Below are positions 2,909-52,172 of a DNA stretch of 64,000 nucleotides, one piece after another. How positions within the stretch are numbered: position 1 is the first letter of the stretch; the number at the start of each line of letters is the position of its first letter. Source of the stretch: an uncultured Kiritimatiellota bacterium (GTDB taxonomy: Bacteria > Verrucomicrobiota > Kiritimatiellia > RFP12 > DVOR01); the NCBI GenBank assembly GCA_944391055.1, contig CALXSF010000005.1, positions 28,922-92,921 on the forward strand, written 5' to 3'. The translations under genes were made by a program, and so were the position numbers. Below the pieces are notes generated by a model, which ran no database searches, was not told the origin of the DNA, and saw nothing but the letters and a program-made list of their open reading frames with translations.

Positions 2909-2911
2909 GCC

Positions 2912-4036: not shown

Positions 4037-4092
4037 TCCACCCGTTGGGCTATACTCTCTTCACGATTTGGATACGGGCGAGACCCAAACTA

Positions 4093-7302: not shown

Positions 7303-7320
7303 CGCAGATGGCTTCGGGAA

Positions 7321-7352
7321 AGCGGCCTCCGCAAGGAGGCCGCTTTTTCTTT
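7321..7352 (+). terminator. Rho-independent terminator after the secretin gene
   Basis: gcggcctccgcaaggaggccgc stem-loop followed by a tttttctttt T-run, 19 nt after the stop. Confidence 0.6.
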
Positions 7353-7794
7353 TGTCCCCGTTCTTATTCCCGTCAAGCCGCTCTTCCATCCCCGCCGTCT
7401 GCGTGGCCGGGTCGGTCTTGTGGAACGTTTGGAGGGCGTGTGCGTGGCGCGGCGGCCTGGGAGCCTGTTGCCTGCGTGGCGTCTGCCATGGCCTACTTCC
7501 CTTTATGTTCGCGTTTCTTTTTCCGTTGCTTCTGCTGTGCGTGTTCCTGCTTGCCGGGAGCCGTGCATTGAACGGTTTCTTGACGCGCGCGACAGGGTGC
7601 GTGCGCGCCACGCGCGGCAGGGCATCGTCATCAGGGAAAACAAAGACGGGACGACGACGGCCACGATGTTTTCCTCCGATAGCCTTCCCAATGCCTCCGT
7701 GTCTCGCCGTCCAACGGGTGGGAGACCTTCTGGGCGGCCTTCGTAAAATCGCGGTGCGGCACGCGCGGGGCGCGAGGCTTACGCCCCGATGGCG

Positions 7795-7815
7795 GCGTGT
7801 GGTACAATGAAAGCA
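7795..7815 (+). promoter_or_regulatory. Extended -10 promoter (TGtGGTACAAT) directly abutting the pdxA start codon; possible leaderless transcript
   Basis: gtgtggtacaatgaaagcATG. The -10 TACAAT at 7803-7808 is preceded by TGnG. Only 6-7 nt separate the -10 from the ATG at 7815. Confidence 0.4.
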
Positions 7816-8747
7816 TGAAACCTTTGGCTATCACGGGGGGGGACTGCGCGGGGATCGGGCCGGAGATCGCGGCCCGGGCGATGGCGGCGTTCCCGGACGA
7901 GCGGTTCGTGGTGTACACGGATCGGGCGCTGTTCGCGCGGGCGTGCGCGGCGGCGGGGGTGCCGCTGCCGCGCAACGCGGAGTGGCGCGAGGTGCCGGCG
8001 GTGGGCGACGCGGCGGCGGTCGTGCCGGGGCGGGAGCAGGCCCTGACGGGGCGCCTGGCGCATGATTGCGTGGCGGCGGCGGGGCGGGACGCCCTGGCGG
8101 GGCGGGTGCGGGGATTGGTGACGGCGCCGTTCAGCAAGGCGGCGCTGCGCTTGGCGGGCTTCGACGTGCCGGGGCACACGGAGCTGCTGGCGCGGCTCTG
8201 CGGGCGGGAGGAGGCCACGATGGCGTTCTTCGCGCCGGGGCTGGTGGTGGGGCTGGTGACGATCCATTGCGCGCTGCGGGAGGTGCCGGCGCTGGTCACG
8301 CCCGAGCGGCTCCTGCGCGCGCTGGGCGATCTGGCGGGGGCGCTGCGGCGGGCGTTGGGGCGGCGGCCGCGCATCGGGGTGCTGGCGCTGAACCCGCACG
8401 CGGGGGAGGGCGGGGCCTTCGGCGACGAGGAGGCGCGGGTCATCGCGCCGACCCTGCGCCGGGCGGCGGACTTGGCGGAGTTGGAGGGGCCGCTGGTGCC
8501 GGACACGGCCTTCGCCCCGGCGGCGCACCCGGAGCGCTTCGACGCCTTTTTGGCGATGTACCACGACCAGGGGCTGATTCCCTTCAAGCGGGCGGCCTTC
8601 GAGGAGGGCGTCAACGTCACCCTCGGGCTGCCGTTTGTGCGGACGAGCCCCGACCATGGCACGGCCTTCGCGCTGGCGTGGCAGGGGCGGGCCTCGGCGC
8701 GGAGCATGGAGGCGGCCATCCGCCGGGCGCGGGAGCTGACGCGATGA
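7815..8747 (+). CDS. pdxA: 4-hydroxythreonine-4-phosphate dehydrogenase PdxA
   Basis: N-terminal ITGGDCAGIGPEI and NPHAGEGG motifs are typical of the PdxA family. About 310 aa. The start is taken at MKPLAITGGD (second in-frame ATG) because the promoter sits immediately upstream. Confidence 0.8.
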   Translation: MKPLAITGGDCAGIGPEIAARAMAAFPDERFVVYTDRALFARACAAAGVPLPRNAEWREVPAVGDAAAVVPGREQALTGRLAHDCVAAAGRDALAGRVRGLVTAPFSKAALRLAGFDVPGHTELLARLCGREEATMAFFAPGLVVGLVTIHCALREVPALVTPERLLRALGDLAGALRRALGRRPRIGVLALNPHAGEGGAFGDEEARVIAPTLRRAADLAELEGPLVPDTAFAPAAHPERFDAFLAMYHDQGLIPFKRAAFEEGVNVTLGLPFVRTSPDHGTAFALAWQGRASARSMEAAIRRARELTR

Positions 8748-13085: not shown

Positions 13086-16000
13086 ATGTTTCTTGCGGAC
13101 GCATCGGTCAAGCGGCCCATCGCGATGAGCGTGCTCATCATCATGCTCTCCTTCCTGGGCGTGATGTCGCTGCGCACGCTGGGCAACGACCTTCTGCCGA
13201 CGGTCGACGTCCCCTACGTCACCATCTCCGTGGTCTATTCCGGCGCCTCGCCCGACGAGCTGGAGACCTCCGTCACCCGCAAGATCGAGGACGCCATCTC
13301 GCAGGTCGAGGGCATCAAGCACATCTCCTCCACCTGCCTCAACAACTTCACCCAGGTGCTCATCGAGTTCGAGCTCGACCGCGACGTCGACGTCGCCGCC
13401 ACCGACGTCCGCGAGAAGGTTGACCTCATCCTCGACGAGCTCCCTGAGGACGCCGAGGCCCCCGAGATCCTCAAGTACGACATCAACGCCACCCCCGTCG
13501 TCACCCTCGCCCTCAAGGGCGACCTCCCCCTCGACGAGCTCTACGACTACGCCGACGACAAGCTGAGCGACCGCTTCTCCTCCCTCGCCGGCGTGGCCAG
13601 CGTGGACCTCATCGGCGGCATGGAGCGCGAGGTCATCGTGGAGGTCGACCGCGACAAGCTCGCCGGCCGTGGCCTGGCGATGGCCAACGTCGTCCAGGCC
13701 CTCGGCCAAGGCAACGTCAAGATCCCCATGGGCCAGATCGACGACGGCGCGCGCGAGATCTCCCTCACCTTCGACGGCGAGCCCGACGAGATCGAGGGCC
13801 TGGGCGACCTCCAGGTCGGCGTCTCCCAAGGCCGCCGCGTCTATCTGCGCGACGTCGCCACCTTCGCCTTCGGCACCGAGCGCAAGACCTCCCTCTCCTT
13901 CCACGACGGCGACCCCTGCGTGACCATGAAGGTCACCAAGAAGGGCGACGCCAACGGCACCCTCGTCGTCGCCGAGGTCGCGCGTGTCGTCGCCGAGCTC
14001 AAGGATTCCCTCCCCGGCGGCATGGAGCTGGTCTGGTTCCGCGACGACGGCACCTACATCAACGCCACCGTCTCCGACGGCTTCCTCTCCGTCTGGCAGG
14101 GCGTCCTCCTCACCGGCATCGTGCTGCTCATCTTCCTGGCGGACGTGCGGACGGCCTTCGCCGCCTTCGTCTCCATCCCCGTGACGATGCTCATCACCGC
14201 CGCCGCCTTCCCCCTCTTCGGCTACACCTTCAACATCATCACCATGTGCGCGGTCGGCATCTCGGTCGGCATCCTGGTGGCCAACTCCATCGTCGTGCTC
14301 GAGAACATCGGCCTGGAGTTCGCCAAGCGCAAGGGCACGCGCTACGCCATCGGCCCGGTCGTCGCCTCCGCCACCGGCTACGTCGCCCTCGCCGTCGCCG
14401 CCAGCGCGCTCACCAACATCGTCGTCTTCCTGCCCATCGCCACCATGTCCTCGCTGGCGGGCAAGTTTCTGGCCCCCTTTGCCGTGGTCGTCACCGTGGC
14501 CACCTTCGCCTCGCTGCTCATCTCCTTCACCCTCACGCCCATCCTGGCGATGGTCACCGTGCGCTGGGGCGAGCGCCGCCTCAACCCGGCCCTTGCCTGG
14601 TGCCTCCGCCCGTGGGATTGGTTCTACAAGCGCCTCGAGCGCGCCTACGTCCGCTCCGTCAAGCACGTCGCCCGCGCCCCGTGGGCTTTCCTGCTCGTCG
14701 CCGGCGGGCTCACCGTCGCCGGCTTCCTCTACTTTCCCAAGCAGGTCCAGATGGACTTCGTCCCCGAGATCGACCAAGGCGACGTCACCATCCGCCTGGA
14801 GTTCCCCGCCGACTACAACCTCGGCCGCACCGTCGCCCGCACCCGCGCCATCGCCGACAAGATCCGCGCCGCCGAGCCCGCCGTCACCCACACCAACATC
14901 AACTGCGGCAAGGTCCAGGGCCAGATGGGCACCGTCTCCGAGGGCCCCTACCTCGCCGAGGTCAACCTCCGCCTCACCCCCATGACCGAGCGCCCCGACG
15001 ACCCCATCGGCGCCATTCGCGCCCGCCTCCGCGCCCTTCTCCTCGAGGAGCCCGACTGCATCTACGCCGTCCTCATCCCCTCCGCCGCCGGCGGCGCCAG
15101 CCAGGACATCGCCCAATACGTCAAGGGCCCCGACCTTGGCGTCCTCGACCAGGCCGGCCTGCGCATGGCCCGGGCCTTCGCCGCCGACCCCGTCAACACC
15201 GACGTCGCCTCCTCCATCCGCCCTGGCCGCCCCGAGGTCCGCTTCCTCCCCGACCGCGCCGTCCTCCACGACCTCGGCCTCCCCGCCTCCACCCTCGGCC
15301 AAAGCCTCCGCGCCAACGTCGCCGGCCTCGAGCAGACCACCTACAAGCGCGGCGACCGCTCCTACGACATCCGCGCCCGCTACCGCCAGGTCGACGGCCA
15401 GGGCCAGCTCGCCGCCTTCGACCTCCCCGGCCCCGGCTCCCAGCCCTTCCCCATCGGCGCCGTCGCCGAGCTTCGCCCCGGCCTCCAGCCCACCATCATC
15501 AACCGCTACGACAAATCCCGCACCGTCATCCTCTACGCCAACGCCGCCCGCGGCTACGGCATGGGCACCGCCCTCGCCCACCAGGGCCGCGTCATCGCCG
15601 ACAACCTCCCCCCCGGCTGCTCCGCCACCGTCGGCGGCATGGCCGAGAAGATGAACGAGACCTTCGCCGAGTTCGCCACCGTCGTCTTCGTCGCCATCGT
15701 CCTCACCTACCTGCTCCTCTGCGCCATGATGGAATCCTGGACGCAGCCCTTCATCATCCTCCTCACCGTCCCCTTCTCCTACCTCGGGCTCTACATCGCC
15801 CTCTGGCTCACCCACGAAAGCCTCTCCATGTTCGGCCTCCTGGCCGGCGTCATGCTCGTGGGCGTCGTCGTCAACGCCGCCATCCTCCTCATCGACGAGG
15901 TCAACACCATCCGCCGCGCCGGCGCCGACGTCCTCCCCGCCGCCGCCCTCCTCCGCGCCGCCAAGCGCAAGTTCCGCCCCATCCTCATGACCTGCGTCGC

Positions 16001-16166
16001 CGCCCTCTTCGGCATGCTCCCCATGGCCACCGGCACCGGGCTGGGCTCCGAGCTGCGCGCCTCCATCGGCATCGGCTCGGTCGGCGGCATCATCCTCTCC
16101 TCCCTCATGGCCCTCTACTTCATCCCCGCGGCCTACCTGATCCTCGCCCGGCGCAGGGGGGCCTGA
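13086..16166 (+). CDS. RND-family efflux transporter permease (AcrB/HAE1-like), 1026 aa
   Basis: N-terminus MFLADASVKRPIAMSVLIIMLSFLGVMSLRTLGNDLLP, with 12-TM topology and two large periplasmic loops. Length and operon context are typical. Confidence 0.9.
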   Translation: MFLADASVKRPIAMSVLIIMLSFLGVMSLRTLGNDLLPTVDVPYVTISVVYSGASPDELETSVTRKIEDAISQVEGIKHISSTCLNNFTQVLIEFELDRDVDVAATDVREKVDLILDELPEDAEAPEILKYDINATPVVTLALKGDLPLDELYDYADDKLSDRFSSLAGVASVDLIGGMEREVIVEVDRDKLAGRGLAMANVVQALGQGNVKIPMGQIDDGAREISLTFDGEPDEIEGLGDLQVGVSQGRRVYLRDVATFAFGTERKTSLSFHDGDPCVTMKVTKKGDANGTLVVAEVARVVAELKDSLPGGMELVWFRDDGTYINATVSDGFLSVWQGVLLTGIVLLIFLADVRTAFAAFVSIPVTMLITAAAFPLFGYTFNIITMCAVGISVGILVANSIVVLENIGLEFAKRKGTRYAIGPVVASATGYVALAVAASALTNIVVFLPIATMSSLAGKFLAPFAVVVTVATFASLLISFTLTPILAMVTVRWGERRLNPALAWCLRPWDWFYKRLERAYVRSVKHVARAPWAFLLVAGGLTVAGFLYFPKQVQMDFVPEIDQGDVTIRLEFPADYNLGRTVARTRAIADKIRAAEPAVTHTNINCGKVQGQMGTVSEGPYLAEVNLRLTPMTERPDDPIGAIRARLRALLLEEPDCIYAVLIPSAAGGASQDIAQYVKGPDLGVLDQAGLRMARAFAADPVNTDVASSIRPGRPEVRFLPDRAVLHDLGLPASTLGQSLRANVAGLEQTTYKRGDRSYDIRARYRQVDGQGQLAAFDLPGPGSQPFPIGAVAELRPGLQPTIINRYDKSRTVILYANAARGYGMGTALAHQGRVIADNLPPGCSATVGGMAEKMNETFAEFATVVFVAIVLTYLLLCAMMESWTQPFIILLTVPFSYLGLYIALWLTHESLSMFGLLAGVMLVGVVVNAAILLIDEVNTIRRAGADVLPAAALLRAAKRKFRPILMTCVAALFGMLPMATGTGLGSELRASIGIGSVGGIILSSLMALYFIPAAYLILARRRGA

Positions 16167-16182
16167 CCCGTTTCTCCGCACA

Positions 16183-16222
16183 AAAAAAGGGCCGCCCCCG
16201 TCGGGGGCGGCCCTTTTTTGCC
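16183..16222. terminator. Bidirectional rho-independent terminator between convergent genes
   Basis: aaaaaaagggccgcccccgtcgggggcggcccttttttgcc: a perfect GC stem flanked by A-run and T-run. Confidence 0.7.
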
Positions 16223-16228
16223 TTCCTC

Positions 16229-18703
16229 TCACTCGTAACGCAGCTGGGCGGTGGCGGCGCAGGGGGCGGAGGCGCGGAAGCGGAGCCAGTAGCCGTCGAG
16301 GTCGGAGAGGTCAACGGCGAGGGGCTTGCCGGCGGGGACGGCGTAGGTGGCGTAGGGGAACCAGACGCCGGTGCCGGTGAGGTCGACCTCGAGGGTGAAG
16401 GCGACGGGCCTCTTGGCGTCGTGGGCGAGGGTGAGGGCCTTGCGGTCGAAGCCGGTGAGGAGGTAGGGGTCGGAGGGCTCGCCGGCCTTGACGGGGGTCT
16501 TGAGCCAGGGGCCGCCCTGGCCGCGGGGCTTGCCGAAGGCCCACAGGTCGTCGATGGCGCCGACCCAGACGGCGGCCTTGCCGTCGTCGGAGCGGATGAC
16601 GTGCCCGTCGGCGGGGGCGTCGGGGCGGACGCCGGTGAGGACGAGGAGGCCGCGCCAGGAGGCGAAGTCGTGGATCTGGGCGTTGTGGGCGGCGATGGGG
16701 CGGACTTTGGCGAAGCCGCCGGCGTTCTCGGCGGGGAGCTCGTAGAAGAGGCCGCAGAGGTTCAGGAGGTCGCGCTCGGTGCAGACCTCGCGGCAGACGC
16801 GTGCCGGGCCGAGGGGGCCGGGGCGGTCGAAGGCGGCGGAGGCCTTGGGGAAGCGCCAGCGGCGGCCCTTGTCGTCGACGAGCAGGGCGGAGGCGGCGTC
16901 GACGCTCACGCCCGTGCCCTCGGTGGGGATGGCGTAGTTGGCCTTGGCCCAGGCGGGGTTGTCGGGGAGGCGGCGGAGCGTGAGGTCGGGGGTGAGCTCG
17001 TAGAGGCCGACGTCCTCGGGGCCGTCCTTCCCGGCGCGCATGGCCGCGAGGCCAAGGGTGCCGAGGCGTTCGCCGCGGACGTAGGGGAGGCCGCCGAGGG
17101 CCTGCGCGCCGCCCACGCGGGCGAGGCCGTCGAAGCGCGTGTCGGGGCGCGTGCCGCGCGTGTCGGCCTTGGCGTATTGGAAGTAGGCGGTGACGCCCTC
17201 GGCGTCGCGCCCGGCGGTGAGGCGGAGCCAGGCGCCGCGGAGGGCGGAGAGGTCACAGCGGGTGGCTTGGTTGGGGGGGACGTCGAGGGTGCCGACCTTT
17301 TCCCAAGTGCCGTCGCCCTTGGCGTCGACCTCGAGGGTGACGGCGAGGGGCTTGTCGCCGCGGTGGGCGAGCCAAAGGGCGCGGCGGTCGTAGCCGTCGA
17401 GGAGGTAGGGGTCGGAGGGCTCGCCGGCCTTGACGGCCTCGTCGAACCAGAGGGCGCCGCGGCCGAGGGCGGGGCCGAGGGCGGCGAGCTGGTCGGGGCG
17501 GAGGAACCAGAGGTTGGAGTTGGATTGGCCGGGGCCGCGGATGGCGCCCTTGGCGCGGCGCTTGTTGTAGAACTCGTTCTTGGCGGTGTCGTCGCAGCCG
17601 AGGACGACCCAGTCGCCCCAGCGGCAGAAGTCGCCGACGACCTTGACGGTGTTGGAGAGGGGGCGGATGCCGGCGGAGGTCTTGGAGGTGAAGGTCTTGG
17701 GGAAGCGCCAGAAGGTGCCGTGCATGGTCATGAGCAGGTCGTTGCCGAGGCCGATCTCGCGGATTCGGGGCCATTCGGTGTTCCAGCCGTGGGCGCCGTC
17801 GTAGCTGTGGCTGCCCTTGGGGAGGCGGTAGGTGTGCCATTGGCCGCCGTCGAGGGCCATGAGGATGAGGGAGCGGTAGTCCCAGCCGACGCTCCAGAGG
17901 GGGTCGTCGGGGGAGGCGTTGCCGAGGATGCCGCCGGGGCCGGTGACCTCGGTGAACTGGTTGCGGCGGACGACGCGGAAGTCGGGGCGGCCGTCGTCGC
18001 GGAGCCCGCCCCGCCATTCGGCCAGGACGCCGGAGGGGGTGGCGGGGTCCCACTGCGCGCGGGCGGCGGTGTCGCCGTTGTTGGCGTAGACCACGCGGCC
18101 CTGGGCGGTGTAGGCGCCCTTGCCGTGGTAGCCGGGGAGGAGGGTGCCGGCGTGGCTGCGCGCGCCGGGCTCGCGGTTGCCGTCCACGTTGAGCTCGCGC
18201 AGCGCCAAGGTGCGGACGTCGATGTCGTAGAGGCCCTCCTCCATCGTGGCGTAGTAGAGGCGGTTGGCGGGGTCGGTGAGGTGGCGCATGTTGGCCGTGA
18301 GGCGGCCGTAGATGGGCTTGCCGGGGCGCTTGGGGTCCTTGGGGACGCGGACGCCGCCCTTTTTGTCGATGACGTAGGGGCCGATGAAGAGCTGGCGGGA
18401 CTCGCGGTGGATCATGCGGTTGGCGGGGGTGCCGCCGATGCTTTCGGGGCGGATGATCTGCGTGAGGTCGGGGGTGATCTGGTAGAGCTTGTCCGAGGAG
18501 CCGTCGGGCTCGTGCGGGGCGTAGGTGACGGCCCAGAGGCTGCCGGCCCAGGGGACCACCGCGCCCGTGCCGCATTCGCCCTCGTCGTTGAACATGGCCA
18601 GGTGCGGGTAGATGCCGCTGACGAAGGGTCGCTTGGCGGCCTCGGCCGCCGTGGCCGCGCCGGCGCCGAGCAGGGCCAGCGCGCAGAGGAGGAGTCGTTT
18701 CAT
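16229..18703 (-). CDS. Secreted hypothetical protein (824 aa) with an internal duplication of a ~400-aa unit
   Basis: Signal peptide (MKRLLLCALALLGAGAATAAEA). Two homologous halves, e.g. KAGEPSDPYLLDGYDRRALWLAHRGDKPLAVTLEVDAKGDG and KAGEPSDPYLLTGFDRKALTLAHDAKRPVAFTLEVDLTGTG. No family recognized. The GC-rich antisense ORFs on the plus strand are artifacts. Confidence 0.6.
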   Translation of the reverse strand: MKRLLLCALALLGAGAATAAEAAKRPFVSGIYPHLAMFNDEGECGTGAVVPWAGSLWAVTYAPHEPDGSSDKLYQITPDLTQIIRPESIGGTPANRMIHRESRQLFIGPYVIDKKGGVRVPKDPKRPGKPIYGRLTANMRHLTDPANRLYYATMEEGLYDIDVRTLALRELNVDGNREPGARSHAGTLLPGYHGKGAYTAQGRVVYANNGDTAARAQWDPATPSGVLAEWRGGLRDDGRPDFRVVRRNQFTEVTGPGGILGNASPDDPLWSVGWDYRSLILMALDGGQWHTYRLPKGSHSYDGAHGWNTEWPRIREIGLGNDLLMTMHGTFWRFPKTFTSKTSAGIRPLSNTVKVVGDFCRWGDWVVLGCDDTAKNEFYNKRRAKGAIRGPGQSNSNLWFLRPDQLAALGPALGRGALWFDEAVKAGEPSDPYLLDGYDRRALWLAHRGDKPLAVTLEVDAKGDGTWEKVGTLDVPPNQATRCDLSALRGAWLRLTAGRDAEGVTAYFQYAKADTRGTRPDTRFDGLARVGGAQALGGLPYVRGERLGTLGLAAMRAGKDGPEDVGLYELTPDLTLRRLPDNPAWAKANYAIPTEGTGVSVDAASALLVDDKGRRWRFPKASAAFDRPGPLGPARVCREVCTERDLLNLCGLFYELPAENAGGFAKVRPIAAHNAQIHDFASWRGLLVLTGVRPDAPADGHVIRSDDGKAAVWVGAIDDLWAFGKPRGQGGPWLKTPVKAGEPSDPYLLTGFDRKALTLAHDAKRPVAFTLEVDLTGTGVWFPYATYAVPAGKPLAVDLSDLDGYWLRFRASAPCAATAQLRYE

Positions 18704-36075: not shown

Positions 36076-36905
36076 ACGACTACGAACTTCTGGACAGCGG
36101 CGGGGGCGCCAAACTCGAGCGCTTCGGCGCCGTCGTCCTCGCCCGCCCCTGCGCGCAGGCCGTCTGGCAGCCCCAGCGCCCCGATCGCTGGAAGGCCGCC
36201 GACGCCACCTTCGACCGCGAGGAGGGCAACCGCTGGCACGGCCGCGCCCGCCTCCCCAAGGAATGGGCCATCGACGTCGACGGCACCCGCTTCCGCCTCT
36301 CCGGCACCGACTTCGGGCACCTGGGCATCTTCCCCGAGCAGCGCGCCCAATGGGCCTGGATCCGCGCGCGCGTCGCCGCCGCGCCCCGCCCCGTCCGCGT
36401 CCTCAACCTCTTCGCCTACTCCGGCGGCTCCACCCTCGCCGCCGCCCGAGCCGGCGCGGAGGTCTGCCATCTCGACGCCTCCAAGGGCATGGTGCAGTGG
36501 GCCCGCGCCAACGCCGACCTCAACGGCCTCGCCGAGCGCCCCATCCGCTGGATCGTCGACGACGCCCACAAGTTCCTCAACCGCGAGATCCGCCGCGGCC
36601 GCCGCTACGACGGCATCATCCTGGACCCGCCCACCTACGGCCGCGGCGGCAACGGCGAGACCTACAAGATCGAGCGCGACCTCACCGAGACCCTCCGCCT
36701 CTGCCGCGCGCTCCTCTCCGAGGCCCCCCGCTTCCTCCTTCTCTCCGCCCACACCCCCGGCCACACCCCCGTCGTCCTCGCCAACGTCCTCGCGCAGGCC
36801 CTCCGCGGCCTCCCCGGCGCCATCGAGTCCGGCGAGATGCTGCTGACCGGCGCGCCGGACGTCCTCCCCCTCCCCTCCGGGGCCTACGCGCGGTGGCAGC
36901 CATGA
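36072..36905 (+). CDS. Class I SAM-dependent methyltransferase, rRNA m5C/m2G methyltransferase-like (RlmI/RlmK-type catalytic domain)
   Basis: SAM-binding [16 protein letters not shown] and catalytic [10 protein letters not shown] motifs. ATG overlaps the rnc stop. Start is inside the ORF-track ORF 35757..36905. Confidence 0.6.
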
Positions 36906-38347
36906 GCCGGCGCGCCTTCCTTGCCCTTGCGGCGCTCGCCGCCGGGTTCGCCCCCGGCGCCGTCACCCTCCGTCCCGACTATGCCGGGCTCACCGTCCCC
37001 CCGAACATCGCCCCCCTCAACTTCGACGTCCAAGGCGTCCCCGACGACGCCACCGTCACCCTCTCCAACGGCACGGAGACGCGCGATTTCGGCCCCCGCG
37101 TCCGCGTCCCCCCCGCCTTCTGGCGCCGCCTGCTCCAGGCCCCGGCCTACACCGTCACCGTCCGCGACGGCGGCCGCACCCTTTTCTGCGCCACCAACAC
37201 CGTCGCCCGGGAGGCCATCGACCCCGTCCTGGCCTACCGCCTCATCCCGCCCAGCTACGAGAACTACCAGGGCATGGGCCTTTGGTGGCGCGACCTCACC
37301 ACCTTCCGCGAGCACCCGCTCTACACCAATCTCCAATCCTCCCCCACCCAGTGCGTCAATTGCCACGCCTTCAACCAAGGCGACCCCGACACGCTCCTCT
37401 TCCACCTCCGCGCCGAGAACCCCGGCACGCTCATCTACGCCGGCAAGGGCGACCCCGGCCGCAAGCGCGACTTCAAGGGCGGCCCCTTCTTCGCCTCGGG
37501 CGTCTATCCCGCCTGGCACCCCTCCGGCGATTTCGTCGCCTTCTCCGTCAATGACACTATGCAGGTCTTCTACTACGCCAACCCCGACAAGGTCGAGGTC
37601 CTCGACACCCGCAGCGACATGCTGCTCTACGACCTGCGCGCCGACGCCGCCATCCCCATCGAGACGAACCCCCTCCTCTTCGACTGCTTCCCCGCCTGGT
37701 CGCCCGACGGCAAGACCCTCTATTCCGTCGCCGCCCAGCCGCCTTTCCCCTCCATCCCCGACGACAAGGACGCGCGCGGCGCCCAGGCCGTCAATGGCTA
37801 TACGAACCTGTGCTACAACCTCATCGCCCGGGAGTTCGACCCCGGCCGCCGCGCCTTCTCCAAGCCCCGCGTCGTCCTCAACGTCTCGGACTCCCACCGC
37901 TCCGTCACCCTCCCCCGCGTCTCCCCCGACGGCCGCTGGCTTGTCTTCTCCCTCGGCCCCCAAGGCGTCTTCCACGTCTGGCACAAAGCCTCCGACCTCT
38001 GGATCCTCGACCTCCGGGAGCGCGCCTTCCGCCCCCTCTCCGAGCTCAACTCCCCCGATTCCGAGAGCTACCACGCCTTCTCCTCCAACGGCGCCTGGAT
38101 GGTCTTCTCCTCCCGCCGCGACGACGGCGCCTACACGCGCCCCTACATCGCCCACTTCGACCCCGCCACCGGCCGCTTCGGCAAGCCCTTCATCCTCCCC
38201 CAGGAGGAGCCCGCCCACCACGACCGCCGGATGCTCTCCTACAACGTCCCCGAGTTCGCCAAGGCCCCGCCCTCCCGCTCGCCCCGGGAGCTCCGCCGCC
38301 TCGCCGAGCGCCCCGCCGCCAAACCCGCCTTCCCCGCCAAGCCCTGA
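36902..38347 (+). CDS. Secreted TolB-like beta-propeller (PD40/WD40-like repeats) protein
   Basis: Signal peptide with Tat-like RRAFL. PD40-type repeats ([31 protein letters not shown]). The 960-aa ORF-track frame 35465..38347 is an artifact; the start is inferred at ATG 36902 overlapping the previous stop. Confidence 0.6.
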
Positions 38348-38354
38348 GCCGCGC

Positions 38355-38415
38355 CCGCCCGCCCCGCGTGGGCGGGGCGCGGACGAGAAAGGCGCGGGCG
38401 AAAGCCCGCGCCGGG
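38355..38415. terminator. GC-rich hairpins between convergent genes (candidate bidirectional terminators)
   Basis: cccgccccgcgtgggcggggcg and ggcgcgggcgaaagcccgcgcc stem-loops. No strong T-run, so weak. Confidence 0.35.
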
Positions 38416-38441: not shown

Positions 38442-39431
38442 TCAGGCGCGGCGGCTGACGGCGTCGAGCTCGATCTCGAAGAGGAGGTCGTCGCGGCAGA
38501 CGTCGGCGATGACCTCTTGGGCGAGGTCGGCGGGGAGGCCGTGGTCGGCGAGCCAGCGCTGCCAGAGGGGGCGGTATTCGGGGCGCTTGATGTAGGCGAT
38601 GGCCCGGGAGGTGTCGCGGAGCGTCATCCGCCGGGTGGCGAGGATGGCGGAGACGACGTCCATGGTGAGGGCGATCTGCTTCTCGGGGTCGCCGACGTGG
38701 GCGGTCTCGCCGCCGAAGGCGATGCTGGCGGTGCCGGAGACGAAGACGGTGCGGCCTTCGGGGGTGACGATCTCGGCGGCGCGGCTGAAGCTGCTGCGGT
38801 AGTCGAGGGCGGGGCATTGGAGGGGGGAATCCAGCATCCCGCGGGTGACGGCGGCGCCGGGTTTGGGGCGCATGGCCAGCGCGCCGGCGATGATGGCGCT
38901 GCCGGTGGTGTTGGCGCTGCCGATGCCGGTGCTGGCGGGGACGAACCCGCCGAAGACGCGGCGGCTCTCGAAGAAGGCGTCGCGGACGCGGTTGAAGGGG
39001 TCGTACCACTCCAGGAGTTTGTCGAGGTAGAGCCAGGTGCGGACGACGTCGTGGAAGCCGAAGCCGACGGATTGGAGGGCGGCCTCGATGTTCTCGAAGA
39101 CGGACGCGGCCTGGGCCTCGCGGGGGGCGGAGAGGTCGGTGGGGAGGACGCCGGTGAGGAGGACGTAGTCGGCGTGGGCGTCGGCCCAGCGGGCGCCGAC
39201 GGCGGCGCCGTTGAGGGTGACGGTGTCGACGGCGCCGTTGGAGACGAGCGTGCGCTGGACGACCGCGGGGAGCCCGCCGGTCTGCTCGTTGCAGAGCCAG
39301 ATGGCGGGGACGTCGAGGGTCTGGACGGCGGCGAGGGCCTCCGGGGAGCCCCAGCCGGCGCGGGCGATCTCGACGCCTCGGACGGTGGTCTCAAGCGTGG
39401 GCCAGAGGGCGCCTTTGAGTTGGGTCATCAT
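38442..39431 (-). CDS. Tandem RidA/YjgF-fold protein, possibly chorismatase (FkbO/Hyg5-like) family
   Basis: 329 aa with two RidA-like halves (e.g. FENIEAALQSVGFGFHDVVRTWLYL and GDPEKQIALTMDVVSAILATRRMTLRDTSRAIAYI). Size and duplication fit the chorismatase family. The specific function is inferred from architecture only. Confidence 0.45.
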   Translation of the reverse strand: MMTQLKGALWPTLETTVRGVEIARAGWGSPEALAAVQTLDVPAIWLCNEQTGGLPAVVQRTLVSNGAVDTVTLNGAAVGARWADAHADYVLLTGVLPTDLSAPREAQAASVFENIEAALQSVGFGFHDVVRTWLYLDKLLEWYDPFNRVRDAFFESRRVFGGFVPASTGIGSANTTGSAIIAGALAMRPKPGAAVTRGMLDSPLQCPALDYRSSFSRAAEIVTPEGRTVFVSGTASIAFGGETAHVGDPEKQIALTMDVVSAILATRRMTLRDTSRAIAYIKRPEYRPLWQRWLADHGLPADLAQEVIADVCRDDLLFEIELDAVSRRA

Positions 39432-39446: not shown

Positions 39447-41333
39447 TCAGAGAGAGAGGATGTAGAGCTCGAGGTCGGCGAGCTCCTCTTCGGAGAGGTC
39501 GCTGGTGATGCCGTGCTCGTCGGCGGGGTTGAAGGTGGTGAGGACCTCGCGCATGGTGCGGGCGCGGCCGTCGTAGAGATAGGGGGCGGTGCGCCAGCAT
39601 TCGTTGAGGGTGGGCACGTCGAACTTCTGCCCGAGTTCGTCGCGGGTGCCCAGGCCGAGGTCGTAGAGGGGGGACTTGGCGCCGTCGTTGGGGTCGGCCG
39701 CCGCGGTGAAGTGGAGCTCGGGCTTGTGGCAGCGGGCGCAGTCGGCCTTCTCGAAGACGGCCTTGCCGCGGGCGATGGCCTCGGCGTTCGCGGGGCGGCC
39801 GTAGGGGGAGGGCTGCTGGCGCATGGAGATGACGTAGGCGTCGATGCACTTGGCGTCCTCCTCGGCGGCGTCGTAGAACTGGATGTGGTGGAAGCCGGCG
39901 CGGTTGCAGTGGAACATATCCTTGCGGATGCCGGTGATCATGGTGGGGGGCGTGACGTTGGAGAGGTAGAGGGACTTGGTCTGCTTGGGGTTGCCGATGC
40001 CGTCGTTCATGAGATCCCAGTTGAGGCCGTCGGCGACGCCGTCGGGGTGGCAGGAGGCGCAGGACTGCCATTGCTGGAAGCACTTGGAGCCGTCGTTGAA
40101 GAGCATCTCGCCGCGGAGGACGGGGTCTTGGGCCAGGTCGATGAGCTTGCCGTCGGCGGCGAGGGGCAGGGTGACGGGCTTGATGACGCGCTCCTTGAAG
40201 GGGACGACGGTGAGGGCGTCGGCGAAGTAGGAGACGACGTAGGCGCGGTCGTTGGTGGCGACGATGCCGCGGGGGCCGTCGGCGGAGAGGGGGACGCGGC
40301 GGCGGATGCCGGAGAGGAAGGAGAGGTCGTTGTGGACCTCGGCGGCGGAGGAGACGACCTCCGTGACCTTCTCGCCGCGGGCGGCCTTGTCGAGGCGCTC
40401 GTGGAGCTTGGCGCGGTCGATGACGTTGACCTCGCGGGAGCCGGCGTGGGCGACGAGGATCCAGGCGCCGTCGGGGGTGACGGAGACGCCCCAGGGGTTG
40501 GCGGCGCCGAGGTCGACGTCGTCGAGGAGGACGGTGTTGACGTATTTGCCGGTGACGCCGTCGAAGACGGAGAGGGCGGCGGTGTTCATCCAGCCGCGCT
40601 CAAGCTGGGTGGTGGGGAGCTGGTAGCGGGCCTGGGTGTGGGTGAGGTAGACGAATTTGCCGTCGGGCGAGGCGGTGATGGCGCGCACGCCGGTGGAGCC
40701 GTCGGGGAGATGGATGTTGTCGAGGACCTTGAAGGTGGCCGTGTCGATGACGGTGACCTTGGCGGCGACGTACTTGACGGGCTCGGCGGCGTCGTCGGGG
40801 AGCATGTTGATGACGAAGAGCAGCTTGCCGTCCTTGCCGAGGGCGCAGCCGTTGGCCTCGCGGACGGCGGGGGCGGTGGCCAGTAACTCCAGCGTGGCCG
40901 CGTCGTACTTTTGGACGTTGGCGTCGAAGCGGTTGCAGACGTAGACGTACTTGCCGTCGGGGGAGAGGGTGGGGGTCATGGGGCGGTTGCCGGTGACGAC
41001 GCTCTCGCCGTCCTCGCGGAAGAGGCGGCCCTCGTTGCCGTCGTCGGCGGTGTAGAAGAGCGTTCCGTCGGGGGCGACGGCGACGCCGGTGACGGGGAGG
41101 CTGGTCTTGGTGGTGAAGAGGCCGAGGAAGCCGCCGGTCTCCTTGAAGGCCTCGACGCTCCGCAGCTCCTTCCCTTGGAGGTCGCGGACGGAGACCTTGT
41201 GGGCGCCGCGCTCGCCGATGACAAGGTTGGCGCGGTCGGGCGTCAGGCAAATCGTCTCGGGCAACAAGTAATCGGCGCCCCATGCGGTCGCGACGGCGGC
41301 CAAGAGGCCGGCGAAAATCGTCAAACGCTTCAT
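39447..41333 (-). CDS. Secreted beta-propeller (YVTN-type repeats) fused to a C-terminal di-haem cytochrome c domain
   Basis: Signal peptide (MKRLTIFAGLLAAVATAWGA), GGAGG RBS. Repeated 'SPDGK[FY]VY' propeller blades. Two CxxCH haem-binding motifs (CASCHPDG, CARCHKPE) in the last ~200 aa, laid out like bacterial di-haem peroxidase or MauG. Confidence 0.65.
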   Translation of the reverse strand: MKRLTIFAGLLAAVATAWGADYLLPETICLTPDRANLVIGERGAHKVSVRDLQGKELRSVEAFKETGGFLGLFTTKTSLPVTGVAVAPDGTLFYTADDGNEGRLFREDGESVVTGNRPMTPTLSPDGKYVYVCNRFDANVQKYDAATLELLATAPAVREANGCALGKDGKLLFVINMLPDDAAEPVKYVAAKVTVIDTATFKVLDNIHLPDGSTGVRAITASPDGKFVYLTHTQARYQLPTTQLERGWMNTAALSVFDGVTGKYVNTVLLDDVDLGAANPWGVSVTPDGAWILVAHAGSREVNVIDRAKLHERLDKAARGEKVTEVVSSAAEVHNDLSFLSGIRRRVPLSADGPRGIVATNDRAYVVSYFADALTVVPFKERVIKPVTLPLAADGKLIDLAQDPVLRGEMLFNDGSKCFQQWQSCASCHPDGVADGLNWDLMNDGIGNPKQTKSLYLSNVTPPTMITGIRKDMFHCNRAGFHHIQFYDAAEEDAKCIDAYVISMRQQPSPYGRPANAEAIARGKAVFEKADCARCHKPELHFTAAADPNDGAKSPLYDLGLGTRDELGQKFDVPTLNECWRTAPYLYDGRARTMREVLTTFNPADEHGITSDLSEEELADLELYILSL

Positions 41334-41448
41334 CGTGCGTTCCTCCAAATGCGGTTAACGCCAGTAGTCTAGCACAATCCGCCCGCCGCGCGCCAACCTT
41401 TTGCGCCCCCCTGCGTACGGGAGTGGGCAGGGGCGGGCCGCCGGGCGC

Positions 41449-43053
41449 TCAGCGCGCCCGGGAGGCCGCCTCGCTCGCGAGGGCGGCGAAGGGGCGCTTG
41501 TCGGCGGGGTGGACGTTGGCGGGGTCGCCGAGGCCCGCGCCGAAGGTGTCGAGGAAGACGGCGCCCTCCTCGGCGCAGACCTTGCGCTGGAGCGCGCGGT
41601 AGGGCCCCCAGGGGCGATTGAGGCGGGGCAGGCCCATGACGAGGGGCGGCGTCTTGGGGCTGAGGGCGCGGAGGGTGCGGACGGTCGCACGGAGCGTCTC
41701 TTCCATGTAGGCCTCGTCCAAGGGGGCGTCGGGCTCGCCGCCGATGGCGACGGAGGCGTTGGATTCGCCCTGGTACCAGAGGATGCCCGTGAGCGGCACG
41801 CCGCGGAGGCGGGCGAGGCCGTGCCGCCAGAGCGCGCCGACCTCCCAGCCAGGCCAGGCGCCGTCGCTGCGGCGGCCGTGGGTGACCTTGGCCCAGGTGC
41901 GGGGGTAGTCCTCGTTCTGGCAGAGGGTCTTGCGGTTGGTGAGGATGCGCAGGAGGCGGGGGAGGCGCGGCTTGCCGGCCTCGTCCGCGCCGGCCATGAG
42001 GGGCGCGGGGAGGAAGGCCTCGGTGGGCGCGCCGCCGACGTCGACGAGCAGGATGGCGATGGGCTTGCCGGTGGCCTCGGCGCGGCGGAGGGCGAAGGAG
42101 ACGGCCAGCGCGCTCCATTGCTTGGCGTTGGCGGGGGTGAGGCGGCGCCAGCGGCCGGTGACGAAGTCCCAGAGGCGGATGTCGTGCTTGGCGGTGGCGG
42201 CGGCCTCGGCGTCGGCGCCGGCGCAGCGGGCGAGGGGCCAGTACATGTTGGACTGCCCGGCGCAGAGCCAGGCTTCGCACGTCCCGGCGATGTCGGCGGG
42301 GAGGGCGACGGGCGGGGCGGGCCAGGGCTCGGCCCAGCCGTTGGCGACGCGCGGGCGGTTTTCGCCGCCGGCGGGCTTGGGCGCGTCCGTGGCCTGGGCG
42401 ATGGCCTTGGCGGTGGCTTGGGCGATGGCCTTGGCGGCCTCGGCGTCGGGGTGGATGCCGTCGGGGAAATGGCTGAGGGGGAGCTGGCGCAGGGCCAGCG
42501 CCATGTCGATGGAGGTGGCGCCGGCGCGCGCGGCGACCTCGGCGAGGGGCGCCTCCATGAGGAAGGGCACGGGCGAGCGGTAGAGGCGGTGGCCGGGGGC
42601 GAGCGGCCCGAGGGTGCCCCAGATGAGGAGCTTGGGCTTGGTGGGGAGCGCGGCGTAGTCGGCCAGCAATTTCAGGTAGTCGTCGCGGAAGGCGCCGGGG
42701 CGCTTGGCCTCGGCGGCGGGGAAGGCGTCGGCGTCGTTGATGCCGAGGTTGCAGACGACGATGTCGGGCCGCCAGTCGAGGGCGGCGCGGTGCTCGGGCA
42801 TGTGGCGGAAGCCGCGGGGCTCGGCGCCGCGGCGGGTGTGGAGGTAGACGCCGCGGCCGGGGTTGCCGAAGTTGCGCACCTCGTAACCGGGCCCCAGGAG
42901 CGCCTGGAGCTGGGCGGGGTAGGCCTGCGTGGCGCGGTCGGCCAGGCCGGAGCCGTAGGTGATGGAGTCGCCGACGCAGGCGACGCGGAGCGCGGCCTGC
43001 GCCATGAGCGGGGCGAGGAGGGCGAGGAGGAGGGGGGCGAGGCGTTTTTTCAT
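41449..43053 (-). CDS. Secreted two-domain esterase: SGNH/GDSL hydrolase + sialate O-acetylesterase-like (SASA/DUF303) domain
   Basis: Signal peptide (MKKRLAPLLLALLAPLMAQA). GDSL motif VACVGDSITYG. Second domain with LCAGQSNM and WYQGESN motifs. Start at the second in-frame ATG. Confidence 0.7.
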   Translation of the reverse strand: MKKRLAPLLLALLAPLMAQAALRVACVGDSITYGSGLADRATQAYPAQLQALLGPGYEVRNFGNPGRGVYLHTRRGAEPRGFRHMPEHRAALDWRPDIVVCNLGINDADAFPAAEAKRPGAFRDDYLKLLADYAALPTKPKLLIWGTLGPLAPGHRLYRSPVPFLMEAPLAEVAARAGATSIDMALALRQLPLSHFPDGIHPDAEAAKAIAQATAKAIAQATDAPKPAGGENRPRVANGWAEPWPAPPVALPADIAGTCEAWLCAGQSNMYWPLARCAGADAEAAATAKHDIRLWDFVTGRWRRLTPANAKQWSALAVSFALRRAEATGKPIAILLVDVGGAPTEAFLPAPLMAGADEAGKPRLPRLLRILTNRKTLCQNEDYPRTWAKVTHGRRSDGAWPGWEVGALWRHGLARLRGVPLTGILWYQGESNASVAIGGEPDAPLDEAYMEETLRATVRTLRALSPKTPPLVMGLPRLNRPWGPYRALQRKVCAEEGAVFLDTFGAGLGDPANVHPADKRPFAALASEAASRAR

Positions 43054-43144
43054 GCCCTCAATGATACGCCCGCGCCGCGCCGCGCGCCAGCGCGAAGGCG
43101 GCCTTGGGCGCGGGGTGCGTGGCGCGGGACGCACCCCCGGGCGC

Positions 43145-48784: not shown

Positions 48785-49111
48785 TCAGTGGCTGCCCTTG
48801 CCGTTGCGGGCCTCGTTGACGCGGAGGCGGCGGCCCATCACGGACTTGTCGTGCAGGGCCCGGATGGCGGCCTCGGCCTGCGCGCGGTAGCACATCTCCA
48901 CGAAGCCGAAGCCCTTGCTCTTGTGGGTGTGGCGGTTCTCGATGACGCGCGCGCGCCGCACCTCGCCATACTTGGCGAACGCGGCGCGCAGCTGCTCGTC
49001 GGTCATCTCGTAGCTCAGGTTGCCGACGTAGATCTCGATGCTTTCGCGGGGGCCGGTGGGGGCGGCCTTGCGGAGGCCAAGGCGGGTCAGCAGCGTGGAG
49101 AAAAAGCTCAT
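48785..49111 (-). CDS. RRM-domain RNA-binding protein
   Basis: RNP-2 (IYVGNL) and RNP-1 (KGFGFVEM) motifs. 108 aa. Start at MSFFST; the longer ORF-track N-terminus is unlikely. Confidence 0.7.
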   Translation of the reverse strand: MSFFSTLLTRLGLRKAAPTGPRESIEIYVGNLSYEMTDEQLRAAFAKYGEVRRARVIENRHTHKSKGFGFVEMCYRAQAEAAIRALHDKSVMGRRLRVNEARNGKGSH

Positions 49112-49285
49112 CTCATCTCTTTCGTTCGGGTTCCGGGCGCCCCGGCCCTCGCCGGGGCTGTCGACGTCTGCGCGGCGGGCGCGCACGTTTTGGGACAACG
49201 CCCCCAATGATACCAAAAACGCCCGCGCGGTGTATCACACCCGCGGGCGTCCCGATCCGCGCCGAGGCCTGGGCGCGGCGGCGCC

Positions 49286-51445
<2,160 letters not shown>

Positions 51446-51587
51446 GATCGGACTGCGCTCCTCGCTTTTTCCCTGCGCCGCGGCCGCTCGCCCACGGCGT
51501 GCTTGAAGGCTATAATTATACCAAAAGTAGCACATCGGCGGCCGCCCGTCAAGCGTTTTTTCGCGACCGCCCCGCCTTCCCCCAAAA

Positions 51588-51640
51588 ACGTGTTTGCGGG
51601 CCTCGTTTCCCGGATCGCGCCGCGTCTCCCCCCGAACCTC
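51588..51640. repeat. Isolated partial copy (core plus right flank) of the 110-bp repeat
   Basis: aacgtgtttgcgggcctcgtttcccggatcgcgccgcgtctccccccgaacc is identical to the core of the array units. Confidence 0.6.
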
Positions 51641-51810
51641 GCCGCACCCCGCCAAGACGGCAAGGCCCCGTCGCGGGATGATGGCGCGGCGGGGCAAAAC
51701 AATTTCCCCCCGTTGAAACGGCGCCTTGCGGCCCCGCCCGAGGGGATCAACACATTTATTATAGCAAAAGCCGGCCGATTGTGCCGTGTTTCGGATTGTG
51801 CGCGCCGCCG

Positions 51811-52172
51811 AACCCGCCCCGCCGCGCCGCGCGCCCCGTCCCCCGGCCAAACGTGTTTGCGGGCCTCGTTTCCCGGATCGCGCCGCGTCTCCCCCCGAAC
51901 CCCGCCGCGTCGCGACCCCGAACCCGCCCCGCCGCGCCGCGCGCCCCGTCCCCCGGCCAAACGTGTTTGCGGGCCTCGTTTCTTGGATCGCGCCGTGTCT
52001 CGCCCCGAACCCCGCCGCGCCCCGCCCCCGAACCCGCCCCGCCGCGCCGCGCGCCCCGTCCCCCGCCTAAATGTGTTTGCGGGCCTCGTTTCCCGGATCG
52101 CGCCGTGTCTCCCCCCGAACCCCGCCGCGCCCCGCCCCCGAACCCGCCCCGCCGCGCCGAACGGCTTCGGGA
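51811..52172. repeat. Tandem array of ~3.3 copies of a 110-bp non-coding repeat (~95% identity)
   Basis: Units start at about 51811, 51921 and 52031, with a partial unit from 52141. Each unit reads gaacccgccccgccgcgccgcgcgccccgtcccccggccaaacgtgtttgcgggcctcgtttcccggatcgcgccg(c/t)gtctc(c/g)ccccgaaccccgccgcg... There are no variable spacers, so it is not a CRISPR array. It lies between divergent rpoD (minus) and a secreted-protein gene (plus). Confidence 0.8.

Follow-up and report, generated by a model that had tools for sequence, protein, structure and literature searches.

The window analysed here is a 64,000-nucleotide stretch of DNA from an uncultured Kiritimatiellota bacterium (GenBank assembly GCA_944391055.1, contig CALXSF010000005.1, positions 28,922 to 92,921 of the forward strand). 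Its minus strand carries an uninterrupted open reading frame (ORF) of 628 codons, with the stop codon at 39447-39449, that encodes a 628-residue protein composed of a beta-propeller followed by a di-haem cytochrome c domain. The next gene downstream, on the same strand, encodes a chorismatase-like protein. The best structural and sequence relatives of the propeller/di-haem protein were hydrazine synthase (HZS) subunits beta and gamma. The protein is therefore assigned, with high confidence, as a stand-alone fused counterpart of HZS beta plus gamma, and it is almost certainly not itself a hydrazine synthase. The features of the locus are collected in Table 1.

Table 1. Features of the two-gene unit in window coordinates, with the basis for each.
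Feature	Position	Strand	Basis
Gene for HZS-beta-gamma-like propeller/di-haem protein	39447..41333	-	ORF translation, family matches, same architecture in 86 loci
Shine-Dalgarno-like GGAGGA	41341..41346	-	7 nt upstream of ATG; direct sequence reading
Putative signal peptide, residues 1-19 (MKRLTIFAGLLAAVATAWG), without lipobox Cys	41277..41333	-	Sequence reading
Seven-bladed YVTN-type beta-propeller, residues ~25-390, homologous to HZS beta subunit	40164..41261	-	
Near-invariant propeller loop RYQLPTTQLERGWMN, residues 236-250	40584..40628	-	Aligned to 5c2v_B
Di-haem cytochrome c domain, residues ~400-628, homologous to HZS gamma	39450..40136	-	Profile versus PDB; Pfam
Cys418, additional Cys located 7 residues ahead of haem motif I (CFQxWQSCASCH)	40080..40082	-	Family-wide
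Haem I motif CASCH, residues 425-429	40047..40061	-	Aligned to SCASCH of 5c2v_C
Haem II motif CARCH, residues 532-536	39726..39740	-	Aligned to second motif of 5c2v_C and of cytochrome c peroxidases
His607 (HGxTS motif), candidate distal ligand of haem II	39513..39515	-	Aligns to DMHG of 5c2v_C
Chorismatase-like partner gene, 329 aa (FkbO/Hyg5 family, double RidA fold)	38442..39431	-	PDB, Pfam, NCBIfam, conserved adjacency
Terminator-like GC hairpin plus T-rich tail closing the two-gene unit	38391..38412	-	9 GC pairs

The propeller/di-haem gene and its family

A first-pass annotation, made from the letters alone, had described a single secreted fusion of a propeller with a cytochrome domain containing two CxxCH motifs. 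The fusion was confirmed, with the propeller and both motifs located in the same protein encoded by one uninterrupted ORF. Identical single-ORF architecture was found in 86 independently assembled loci, which rules against a mis-joined ORF and against an artefact of assembly or reading frame. The AlphaFold2 model of the 628-residue protein, built on 33 homologues, had a pTM of 0.85 and showed an all-beta region from approximately residue 25 to 390 with pLDDT above 90, followed by a helical C-terminal domain. The propeller had been placed at residues 30-430; its YVTN type was upheld, and the boundary in the model lies nearer to residue 390 than to 430.

The suggested search of Pfam returned above-cutoff matches to the propeller families Lactonase and YNCE, to CCP_MauG and to Cytochrom_C. 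The CCP_MauG match (PF03150) scored 32.5 bits versus a cutoff of 25.6, with coverage limited to residues 408-460. The top three NCBIfam models were HZS-BC (E 2.4e-30), HZS-beta and HZS-gamma, in that order, with scores below the curated cutoffs (105 versus 1250, 75 versus 560 and 65 versus 625 bits for NF052342, NF052340 and NF052341). The best matches in a sequence search of PDB were HZS beta (5c2v_B, 5.5e-21) and HZS gamma (5c2v_C, 1.5e-16), and the family profile matched the same chains at 5e-30 and 4.6e-33, respectively. A profile of the C-terminal domain matched 5c2v_C at 1.6e-35, compared to 3e-13 to 1e-6 for cytochrome c peroxidases (CCPs), 1e-10 for MbnH and 2e-6 for MauG. The NCBIfam models of the latter three were below cutoff (17.7 versus 150 for CytoC_perox, 26 versus 444 for MauG and 34 versus 363 for MbnH). 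These results agree with the earlier claim that the protein is not a standard annotated CCP or MauG form, the match to HZS gamma being far stronger.

Full-length homologues were found among 5932 proteins retrieved at E <= 1e-5 and also among 547 clusters of 50% identity at E <= 1e-30. The family is a very large, uncharacterised sister of HZS beta-gamma in bacteria of the Planctomycetes-Verrucomicrobia-Chlamydiae (PVC) group and in other, mostly uncultured, non-anammox bacteria. The window protein has the properties of a non-anammox fusion, in that the propeller precedes the di-haem domain in one polypeptide, the gene is located outside the Brocadiia, and the nearest characterised relatives are HZS beta and gamma.

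The ATG at 41333 was taken as the start codon in preference to a TTG at 41348, since the latter falls within the GGAGGA ribosome-binding site. Residues 1-19 were read by eye, without a predictor, as a Sec signal peptide. The fraction of G or C at third codon positions was 0.96, similar to that of neighbouring genes in a window of 70% GC. No sigma-70 promoter match was found in a scan around the locus, a result which is uninformative at such a GC content.

Haem sites and propeller loop

Residues of HZS gamma are given in the published numbering, obtained by adding 39 to that of PDB chain C on the basis of Cys102/Cys105/His106 and HMMER alignments, and conservation was counted over 358 family members. 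The two CxxCH motifs are as previously claimed. Haem I is probably the catalytic haem, judged by its alignment with haem gamma-I of HZS and the peroxidatic haem of CCPs, to which it would be equivalent, while haem II is probably the haem at which electrons enter. The region of haem I shares with HZS gamma the motifs SCASCH, GLxWDL, (D/E)GxGxxKxTK, PP and CxRxGF. Met465 and Arg478 are present in 335 and 322 of the 358 members, respectively, and the WRTAPY(L)(Y/H)DGR motif is conserved family-wide. The pair His607-Gly608 is conserved in 306 of 358 members, and His607 is the probable sixth ligand of haem II, which would then be bis-His coordinated as in HZS gamma-II. Cys418 occurs in 333 of 358 members. 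Serine is found at this position in HZS gamma and also in the DPRLS motif of the bacterial CCP (bCCP) from Pseudomonas aeruginosa.

The near-invariant loop of the propeller aligns to the segment LPVCEAENGQVFT of 5c2v_B, which contains or adjoins the tunnel loop at beta 245-260. The latter is said to reach the tunnel leading from the gamma to the alpha subunit (PMC12607021). The loop of the window protein is invariant in A1, and across the family W248 was conserved in 355 of 358 members and E/D245 in 325 of 358. Glu245 is a candidate counterpart of the Glu that binds Mg in the HZS-beta loop; an attempt to equate the two foundered on the offset between the PDB chain and the published numbering.

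The loop also bears on whether the protein is a pure electron carrier without catalysis. Both haems could be six-coordinate, and the conserved Met465, Lys450 and Lys453 are located in a disordered loop near haem I, which is in agreement with a carrier. A propeller of 390 residues with an invariant loop, combined with an invariant polar segment (R478, Q485) at the position of the distal pocket, would nevertheless be hard to explain for such a protein, and a carrier is regarded as highly improbable.

An ordinary di-haem CCP with an added N-terminal propeller, detoxifying periplasmic H2O2 in an anaerobe, was also considered. The above-cutoff match to PF03150 is consistent with a CCP, as is the second-haem half of the domain, which aligns well and includes FDxPxLxxxxxTAPYxxDG, and it is general knowledge that a gut anaerobe could use a peroxidase. 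However, the CCP matches were more than 20 orders of magnitude weaker than that to HZS gamma and the first-haem half aligned at only about 7 bits. The conserved Trp of di-haem peroxidases, which the first-pass annotation had proposed to look for, is missing and Ile466 stands at the position of Trp94. Furthermore, the distal motif containing Gln104 and Glu114 was unrecognisable by hand alignment, His607 is located where a Met sixth ligand would be expected, and the CytoC_perox score is low. In the region of the Ca2+ site, the TAP of RTAPY (Thr582, Pro584) is conserved, and the first-haem half aligns too poorly to place the equivalent of Asn79; the site of the P. aeruginosa CCP comprises Asn79, Thr256 and Pro258. 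A plain CCP is thus unlikely, and peroxidase chemistry by a non-canonical site is possible.

The chorismatase-like partner and conserved gene order

The first-pass annotation had noted a flanking "duplicated-RidA (chorismatase-like)" gene, and the gene was found as described. It begins 15 nt past the stop codon of the haem gene, with AGGAA just upstream of its start. The best PDB matches of the encoded protein were Hyg5 (5ag3, 7.5e-11) and FkbO (4bps, 3e-7), and the score against TIGR04444 was 57 bits versus a cutoff of 325. The partner protein has a 98% identical homologue, encoded on a 166-kb contig. The residue E319 aligns to Glu334 of Hyg5, which is essential for catalysis (PMC7170507), and is kept in at least 90% of 49 homologues. 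The motifs DVCRxDLLxEIE, SGTAS and PA(S/A)TGIGS are conserved among the same homologues to at least 90%. The partner is a chorismatase homologue by sequence with a putative activity converting chorismate to a hydroxybenzoate or a dihydroxy-cyclohexadiene carboxylate, and it should be cytoplasmic since it has no signal peptide. The 15-nt gap, the hairpin downstream and the conserved adjacency predict that the two genes form an operon. The hairpin was the sole such site in the scanned region and is by itself weak evidence, since shuffled sequence yielded 1.6 sites on average.

The gene order in relatives was investigated with a sample of 88 related loci plus the window. A tblastn survey of these loci agreed with an unbiased clustering in which flanking ORFs were compared all against all. 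The clustering identified the chorismatase-like gene as the commonest neighbour, present at 49 loci, always on the same strand and with a median gap of 23 bp. Among the 85 loci whose downstream flank extends for 1.5 kb or more, 55 have it downstream in the same orientation. In the reverse direction, all three chorismatase-like homologues looked up from a separate search (3/3) were located 10-90 bp downstream of a beta-gamma-like gene. Genes encoding an HZS_alpha domain (PF18582, above cutoff) were present at 24 loci, usually directly upstream; of the 71 related loci whose upstream flank was long enough, 20 had an alpha-like gene upstream, for the most part loci of other phyla. ResB was found at 18 loci and CcsA at 17, and a class I-beta DAHP synthase (NF006421, 407 bits versus a cutoff of 335) was directly upstream at 11. 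Smaller sets of loci contained a ResA-like thioredoxin or, directly after the chorismatase-like gene, AhbC-AhbD-AhbAB, the genes of the sirohaem-dependent haem pathway.

A neighbour-joining tree suggests an order for these arrangements. The order [alpha]-[beta-gamma]-[chorismatase-like] is found in Hydrogenedentota, Planctomycetota, Lentisphaerota, Nitrospirota and Omnitrophota, the order ([DAHPS])-[beta-gamma]-[chorismatase-like]-[ResB]-[CcsA] (DAHPS, DAHP synthase) in many Kiritimatiellia, and the bare pair of beta-gamma and chorismatase-like genes, last in the suggested order, in the clade of the window. This clade consists of metagenome-assembled genomes (MAGs) from animal gut named Kiritimatiellae, Lentisphaeraceae or Ca. 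Spyradenecus, with 69-79% identity to the window protein in the fetched loci. The hosts of the closest relatives, from animal-gut metagenomes, were water buffalo, sheep, horse and human. One rumen/gut subclade has lost the adjacency of the beta-gamma and chorismatase-like genes.

The alpha-like genes of relatives raise the question of whether the window protein is the beta-gamma part of a true HZS, or of an HZS-like complex converting nitric oxide (NO) to hydroxylamine, with the alpha subunit encoded elsewhere in the genome. This would be consistent with HZS beta and gamma as best relatives, with the HZS_alpha-domain genes preceding the orthologues in other phyla, and with the near-invariance of the propeller loop which in HZS gates the gamma-to-alpha tunnel. 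On the other hand, the score of 105 bits is far below the 1250 required of HZS-BC. Moreover, no HZS_alpha-like gene was detected in the 64-kb window by tblastn with an alpha-like query protein, and none was found within 10 kb at any locus of the window's own clade. Neither Asp168 nor His144 of HZS gamma is conserved, such homologues are reported to be without the residues needed for hydrazine synthesis (PMC12758564), and the closest relatives come from animal-gut metagenomes rather than anammox habitats. Membership in such a complex is therefore judged improbable.

The same linkage was weighed with respect to a maturase of the MauG/MbnH type that would oxidise residues of a propeller-bound partner, namely the alpha-like protein in relatives. 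Membership in the MauG/MbnH superfamily, the tight linkage to the alpha-like gene in many phyla, and the general role of propellers as protein-binding platforms argue for a maturase. The matches to MauG and MbnH were nevertheless weak, the equivalent of MauG Trp93 is absent, no signature of His/Tyr ligation was found, and the gene is retained in the clade of the window with no partner protein linked to it. A maturase is considered very unlikely.

Several of the related loci contained further genes. In 'Verrucomicrobia bacterium ADurb.Bin070' (locus L031), a gene at 4367-8011 (+) encodes an HZS_alpha-domain protein with a C-terminal FGE-sulfatase/PvdO-like domain and is followed by genes for an IclR regulator, DAHP synthase, the beta-gamma-like protein, the chorismatase-like protein, ResB and CcsA. 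In a Hydrogenedentota MAG (L055), tandem HZS_alpha-domain genes at 8-2413 and 2513-5815 (+), encoding 801 and 1100 residues, precede the beta-gamma-like gene, and an ABC transporter of the sugar type is encoded after the chorismatase-like gene. At L059, the region 13207-16570 (+) directly after the chorismatase-like gene encodes AhbC (662 bits, cutoff 650), an AhbD-like radical SAM protein (442, cutoff 500) and a fused AhbA/AhbB siroheme decarboxylase; some lineages thus have the alternative haem pathway linked to the HZS-like cluster. The ResB proteins encoded next to CcsA can be short, with 210-275 residues (L006 10892-11557; L007 6419-7246; L090 7101-7733), where a typical ResB/CcsB has approximately 540. 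A recurrent protein of approximately 220-295 residues with no NCBIfam match is encoded just upstream of the beta-gamma-like gene at 8 loci, mostly outside Kiritimatiellia (L071 9110-9814, L079 9241-9933, L074 8492-9085 and five more). One of these proteins contains a His-rich, possibly cupin-like motif, HNHLANGDGKGFGPKMESWH.

Except for the chorismatase-like partner, the genes around the locus in the window are housekeeping or unrelated, and ResB, CcsA and DAHP synthase were not found by tblastn in the 64 kb. The plus strand upstream encodes RNase III, a SAM methyltransferase and a PD40 protein with CxxCH. The last of these (36902-38347) is a secreted protein of 481 residues with a single CxxCH (CVNCH) in the N-terminal ~150 residues followed by PD40/TolB-like repeats; its gene is convergent with the two-gene unit and recurs in very close relatives only (74% identity, L001 and L002). 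It was rejected as a diverged HZS-alpha based on the absence of an HZS_alpha match in Pfam and NCBIfam, the absence of a tblastn match and its restriction to very close relatives. The minus strand encodes a topoisomerase subunit B of the GyrB/ParE type and an esterase of the GDSL/SASA type. Genes for glycogen phosphorylase, an RRM protein and RpoD follow at a greater distance. The esterase (41449-43134), located directly upstream of the haem gene, is the carbohydrate esterase that had been reported as a flank. It has two domains, the N-terminal one of GDSL type and resembling the acetylxylan esterase AxeA1, the C-terminal one resembling SASA (sialate O-acetylesterase). It was excluded from the system since it is not conserved as a neighbour in relatives. 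The RpoD-type sigma-70 factor (49286-52066, minus strand) has 926 residues, with regions 1.1-4 in the last ~530 and an N-terminal extension of ~390. The gene that follows rpoD closely in the same orientation (48785-49234) encodes a small protein with an RRM domain of the eukaryote type.

Proposed function and comparison with known systems

The best explanation as a whole is a periplasmic haem enzyme that reduces a small oxidant, with a co-transcribed chorismatase-like partner, although this reading is believed and doubted in about equal measure. Electrons would enter at the surface haem II (Cys532/Cys535/His536, with His607 as the probable sixth ligand), as proposed for HZS gamma-II, and pass to haem I (Cys425/Cys428/His429), the distal side of which would be open or water-bound. 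The pocket of haem I would be lined by the region of Arg478 and contacted by the propeller loop 236-250. Haem I is the predicted homologue of haem gamma-I, which binds NO in HZS, and, by analogy with the haems of bCCP and HZS gamma, could reduce H2O2, NO or hydroxylamine. The product of the chorismatase may, speculatively, be a substrate, a reductant, or a precursor of a quinone or cofactor. The haem supply and haem attachment genes that travel along in relatives would belong to the same module. Because the pair is joined in relatives by genes for DAHP synthase, ResB/CcsA, ResA-like or Ahb proteins or by the alpha-like gene, the protein has the appearance of a terminal enzyme in a redox module that is small, periplasmic and self-contained. 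The periplasmic redox enzyme of the first-pass annotation is retained to this extent, with a peroxidase-like function as an inferred possibility; no support was seen for the oxidation of sugars or alcohols that it had also suggested.

Several results weigh against a periplasmic enzyme reducing a small oxidant. The haem-binding segments of the AlphaFold2 model had pLDDT below 50, as expected of a model without haem. The residue Asp168 of HZS gamma, which is proposed to donate protons at haem gamma-I (PMC12607021), corresponds to Ala479 in the window protein and to Ala, Lys or Ser across the family. The residue His144 of HZS gamma occupies the place that the Trp between the haems has in CCP and MauG (PMC12758564), and at this shared position (CCP Trp94, MauG Trp93) the window protein has Ile466 (PPTMITG) and is without the electron-transfer Trp of CCP; I, S, V and W were found there in sampled family sequences. 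The residue Cys165 of HZS gamma, which forms a third covalent link to haem, aligned to Cys476 (HCNRAGF versus RVCGRDPGF) with phmmer only, the profile alignment being shifted by 4 residues. Cys476 is present in 168 of 358 members, confined to a Kiritimatiellia subclade ("CNRAG" versus "AVRAG" elsewhere), and it co-varies with Cys496 (C,C in 152 and A,A in ~91 members). Its candidacy for a third haem thioether was downgraded for these reasons. Since the residue is subclade-specific and co-varies with Cys496, a disulfide between the two may be at least as likely. Finally, no electron donor was identified, no precedent was found in the literature for a cytoplasmic chorismatase tied to a periplasmic haem enzyme, and the substrate is a guess, no family member having been studied experimentally.

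A more specific proposal, which is tentative and on balance doubtful, is that the haem protein and the chorismatase-like enzyme are two parts of one undescribed pathway, in which a shikimate-derived aromatic acid is needed by a periplasmic HZS-like enzyme. The acid would be made in the cytoplasm by a dedicated DAHP synthase and the chorismatase, and the enzyme would work with or without an alpha-like partner. The pathway would span Kiritimatiellia, Lentisphaerota, Verrucomicrobiota, Planctomycetota, Hydrogenedentota, Nitrospirota and Omnitrophota. If correct, this proposal would reveal the ancestral chemistry from which the hydrazine synthase of anammox was recruited. A literature search found no paper linking RidA or chorismatase to such cytochromes and nothing relevant on characterised YVTN/di-haem fusions, and neither RidA nor chorismatase is mentioned in the accessible portions of the main text and supplements of PMC12758564. 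The close linkage to a chorismatase-like gene across phyla, together with DAHP synthase, Ccs and Ahb genes in relatives, appears undescribed.

The reduced, beta-gamma-only form of an HZS relative is found here in a relative of animal-gut bacteria of the PVC group, where anammox makes no sense. A two-gene unit of a non-anammox organism offers a cheap experimental handle on a haem gamma-I site of ancestral type and on the product of the chorismatase. The current source labels are "c-type cytochrome" or "YVTN family beta-propeller protein" and, for the partner, "RidA family protein"; the assignments as HZS-beta-gamma-like and as chorismatase-like correct these generic annotations.

With respect to known systems, the partner shares with the chorismatases FkbO, Hyg5 and XanB2 the fold family, the essential Glu, SGTAS and PA(S/A)TGIGS. 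Unlike those enzymes, it adjoins the gene of a periplasmic cytochrome and is located outside any polyketide, xanthomonadin or ubiquinone cluster. Two c-type haems, a duplicated cytochrome c fold and a second-haem half with TAPY(x)DG are common to the window protein and the bacterial di-haem CCPs, MauG and MbnH (PF03150). The window protein differs from CCP and MauG in having neither the inter-haem Trp nor, probably, a Met or Tyr sixth ligand, in the weak first-haem half and in the added N-terminal propeller.

The origin of hydrazine synthase is under debate, and the enzyme was long described as having no relatives beyond the anammox bacteria (PMC12758564). Fused beta-gamma homologues from outside anammox bacteria were recently reported as clades I-IV, with a co-located alpha-like gene as the selection criterion (Hagglund et al. 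2025, PMC12758564); they were judged to be without the residues needed for hydrazine synthesis and were given no function, and a supplementary table lists BLAST matches to HZS subunits in 'Verrucomicrobia bacterium S94'. Clades I-III have the alpha-like gene upstream of beta-gamma, as do relatives of the window gene. These clades are also characterised by Trp at the position of gamma His144 and by FG-GAP and ABC-transporter neighbours, with extra haems in clade I, whereas the window gene has neither the inter-haem Trp nor such neighbours nor an alpha-like gene nearby; clade IV is a possible match of the window family.

The closest comparison is with HZS beta and gamma of Kuenenia stuttgartiensis (5C2V, chains B and C) and with the fused HZS-BC of Scalindua (NF052342), which has the same order of propeller and di-haem domain as the window protein. 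Shared with HZS are the motifs in the region of haem I, the conserved Arg after CxR, the probable bis-His haem II and the insertion of the propeller loop. The window protein differs in the extra Cys418, Ala in place of Asp168, Ile in place of His144, the shorter spacing of the CxxCH motifs (107 residues) and the chorismatase-like partner gene, and its closest relatives are from gut MAGs of the PVC group instead of the anammox Brocadiia.

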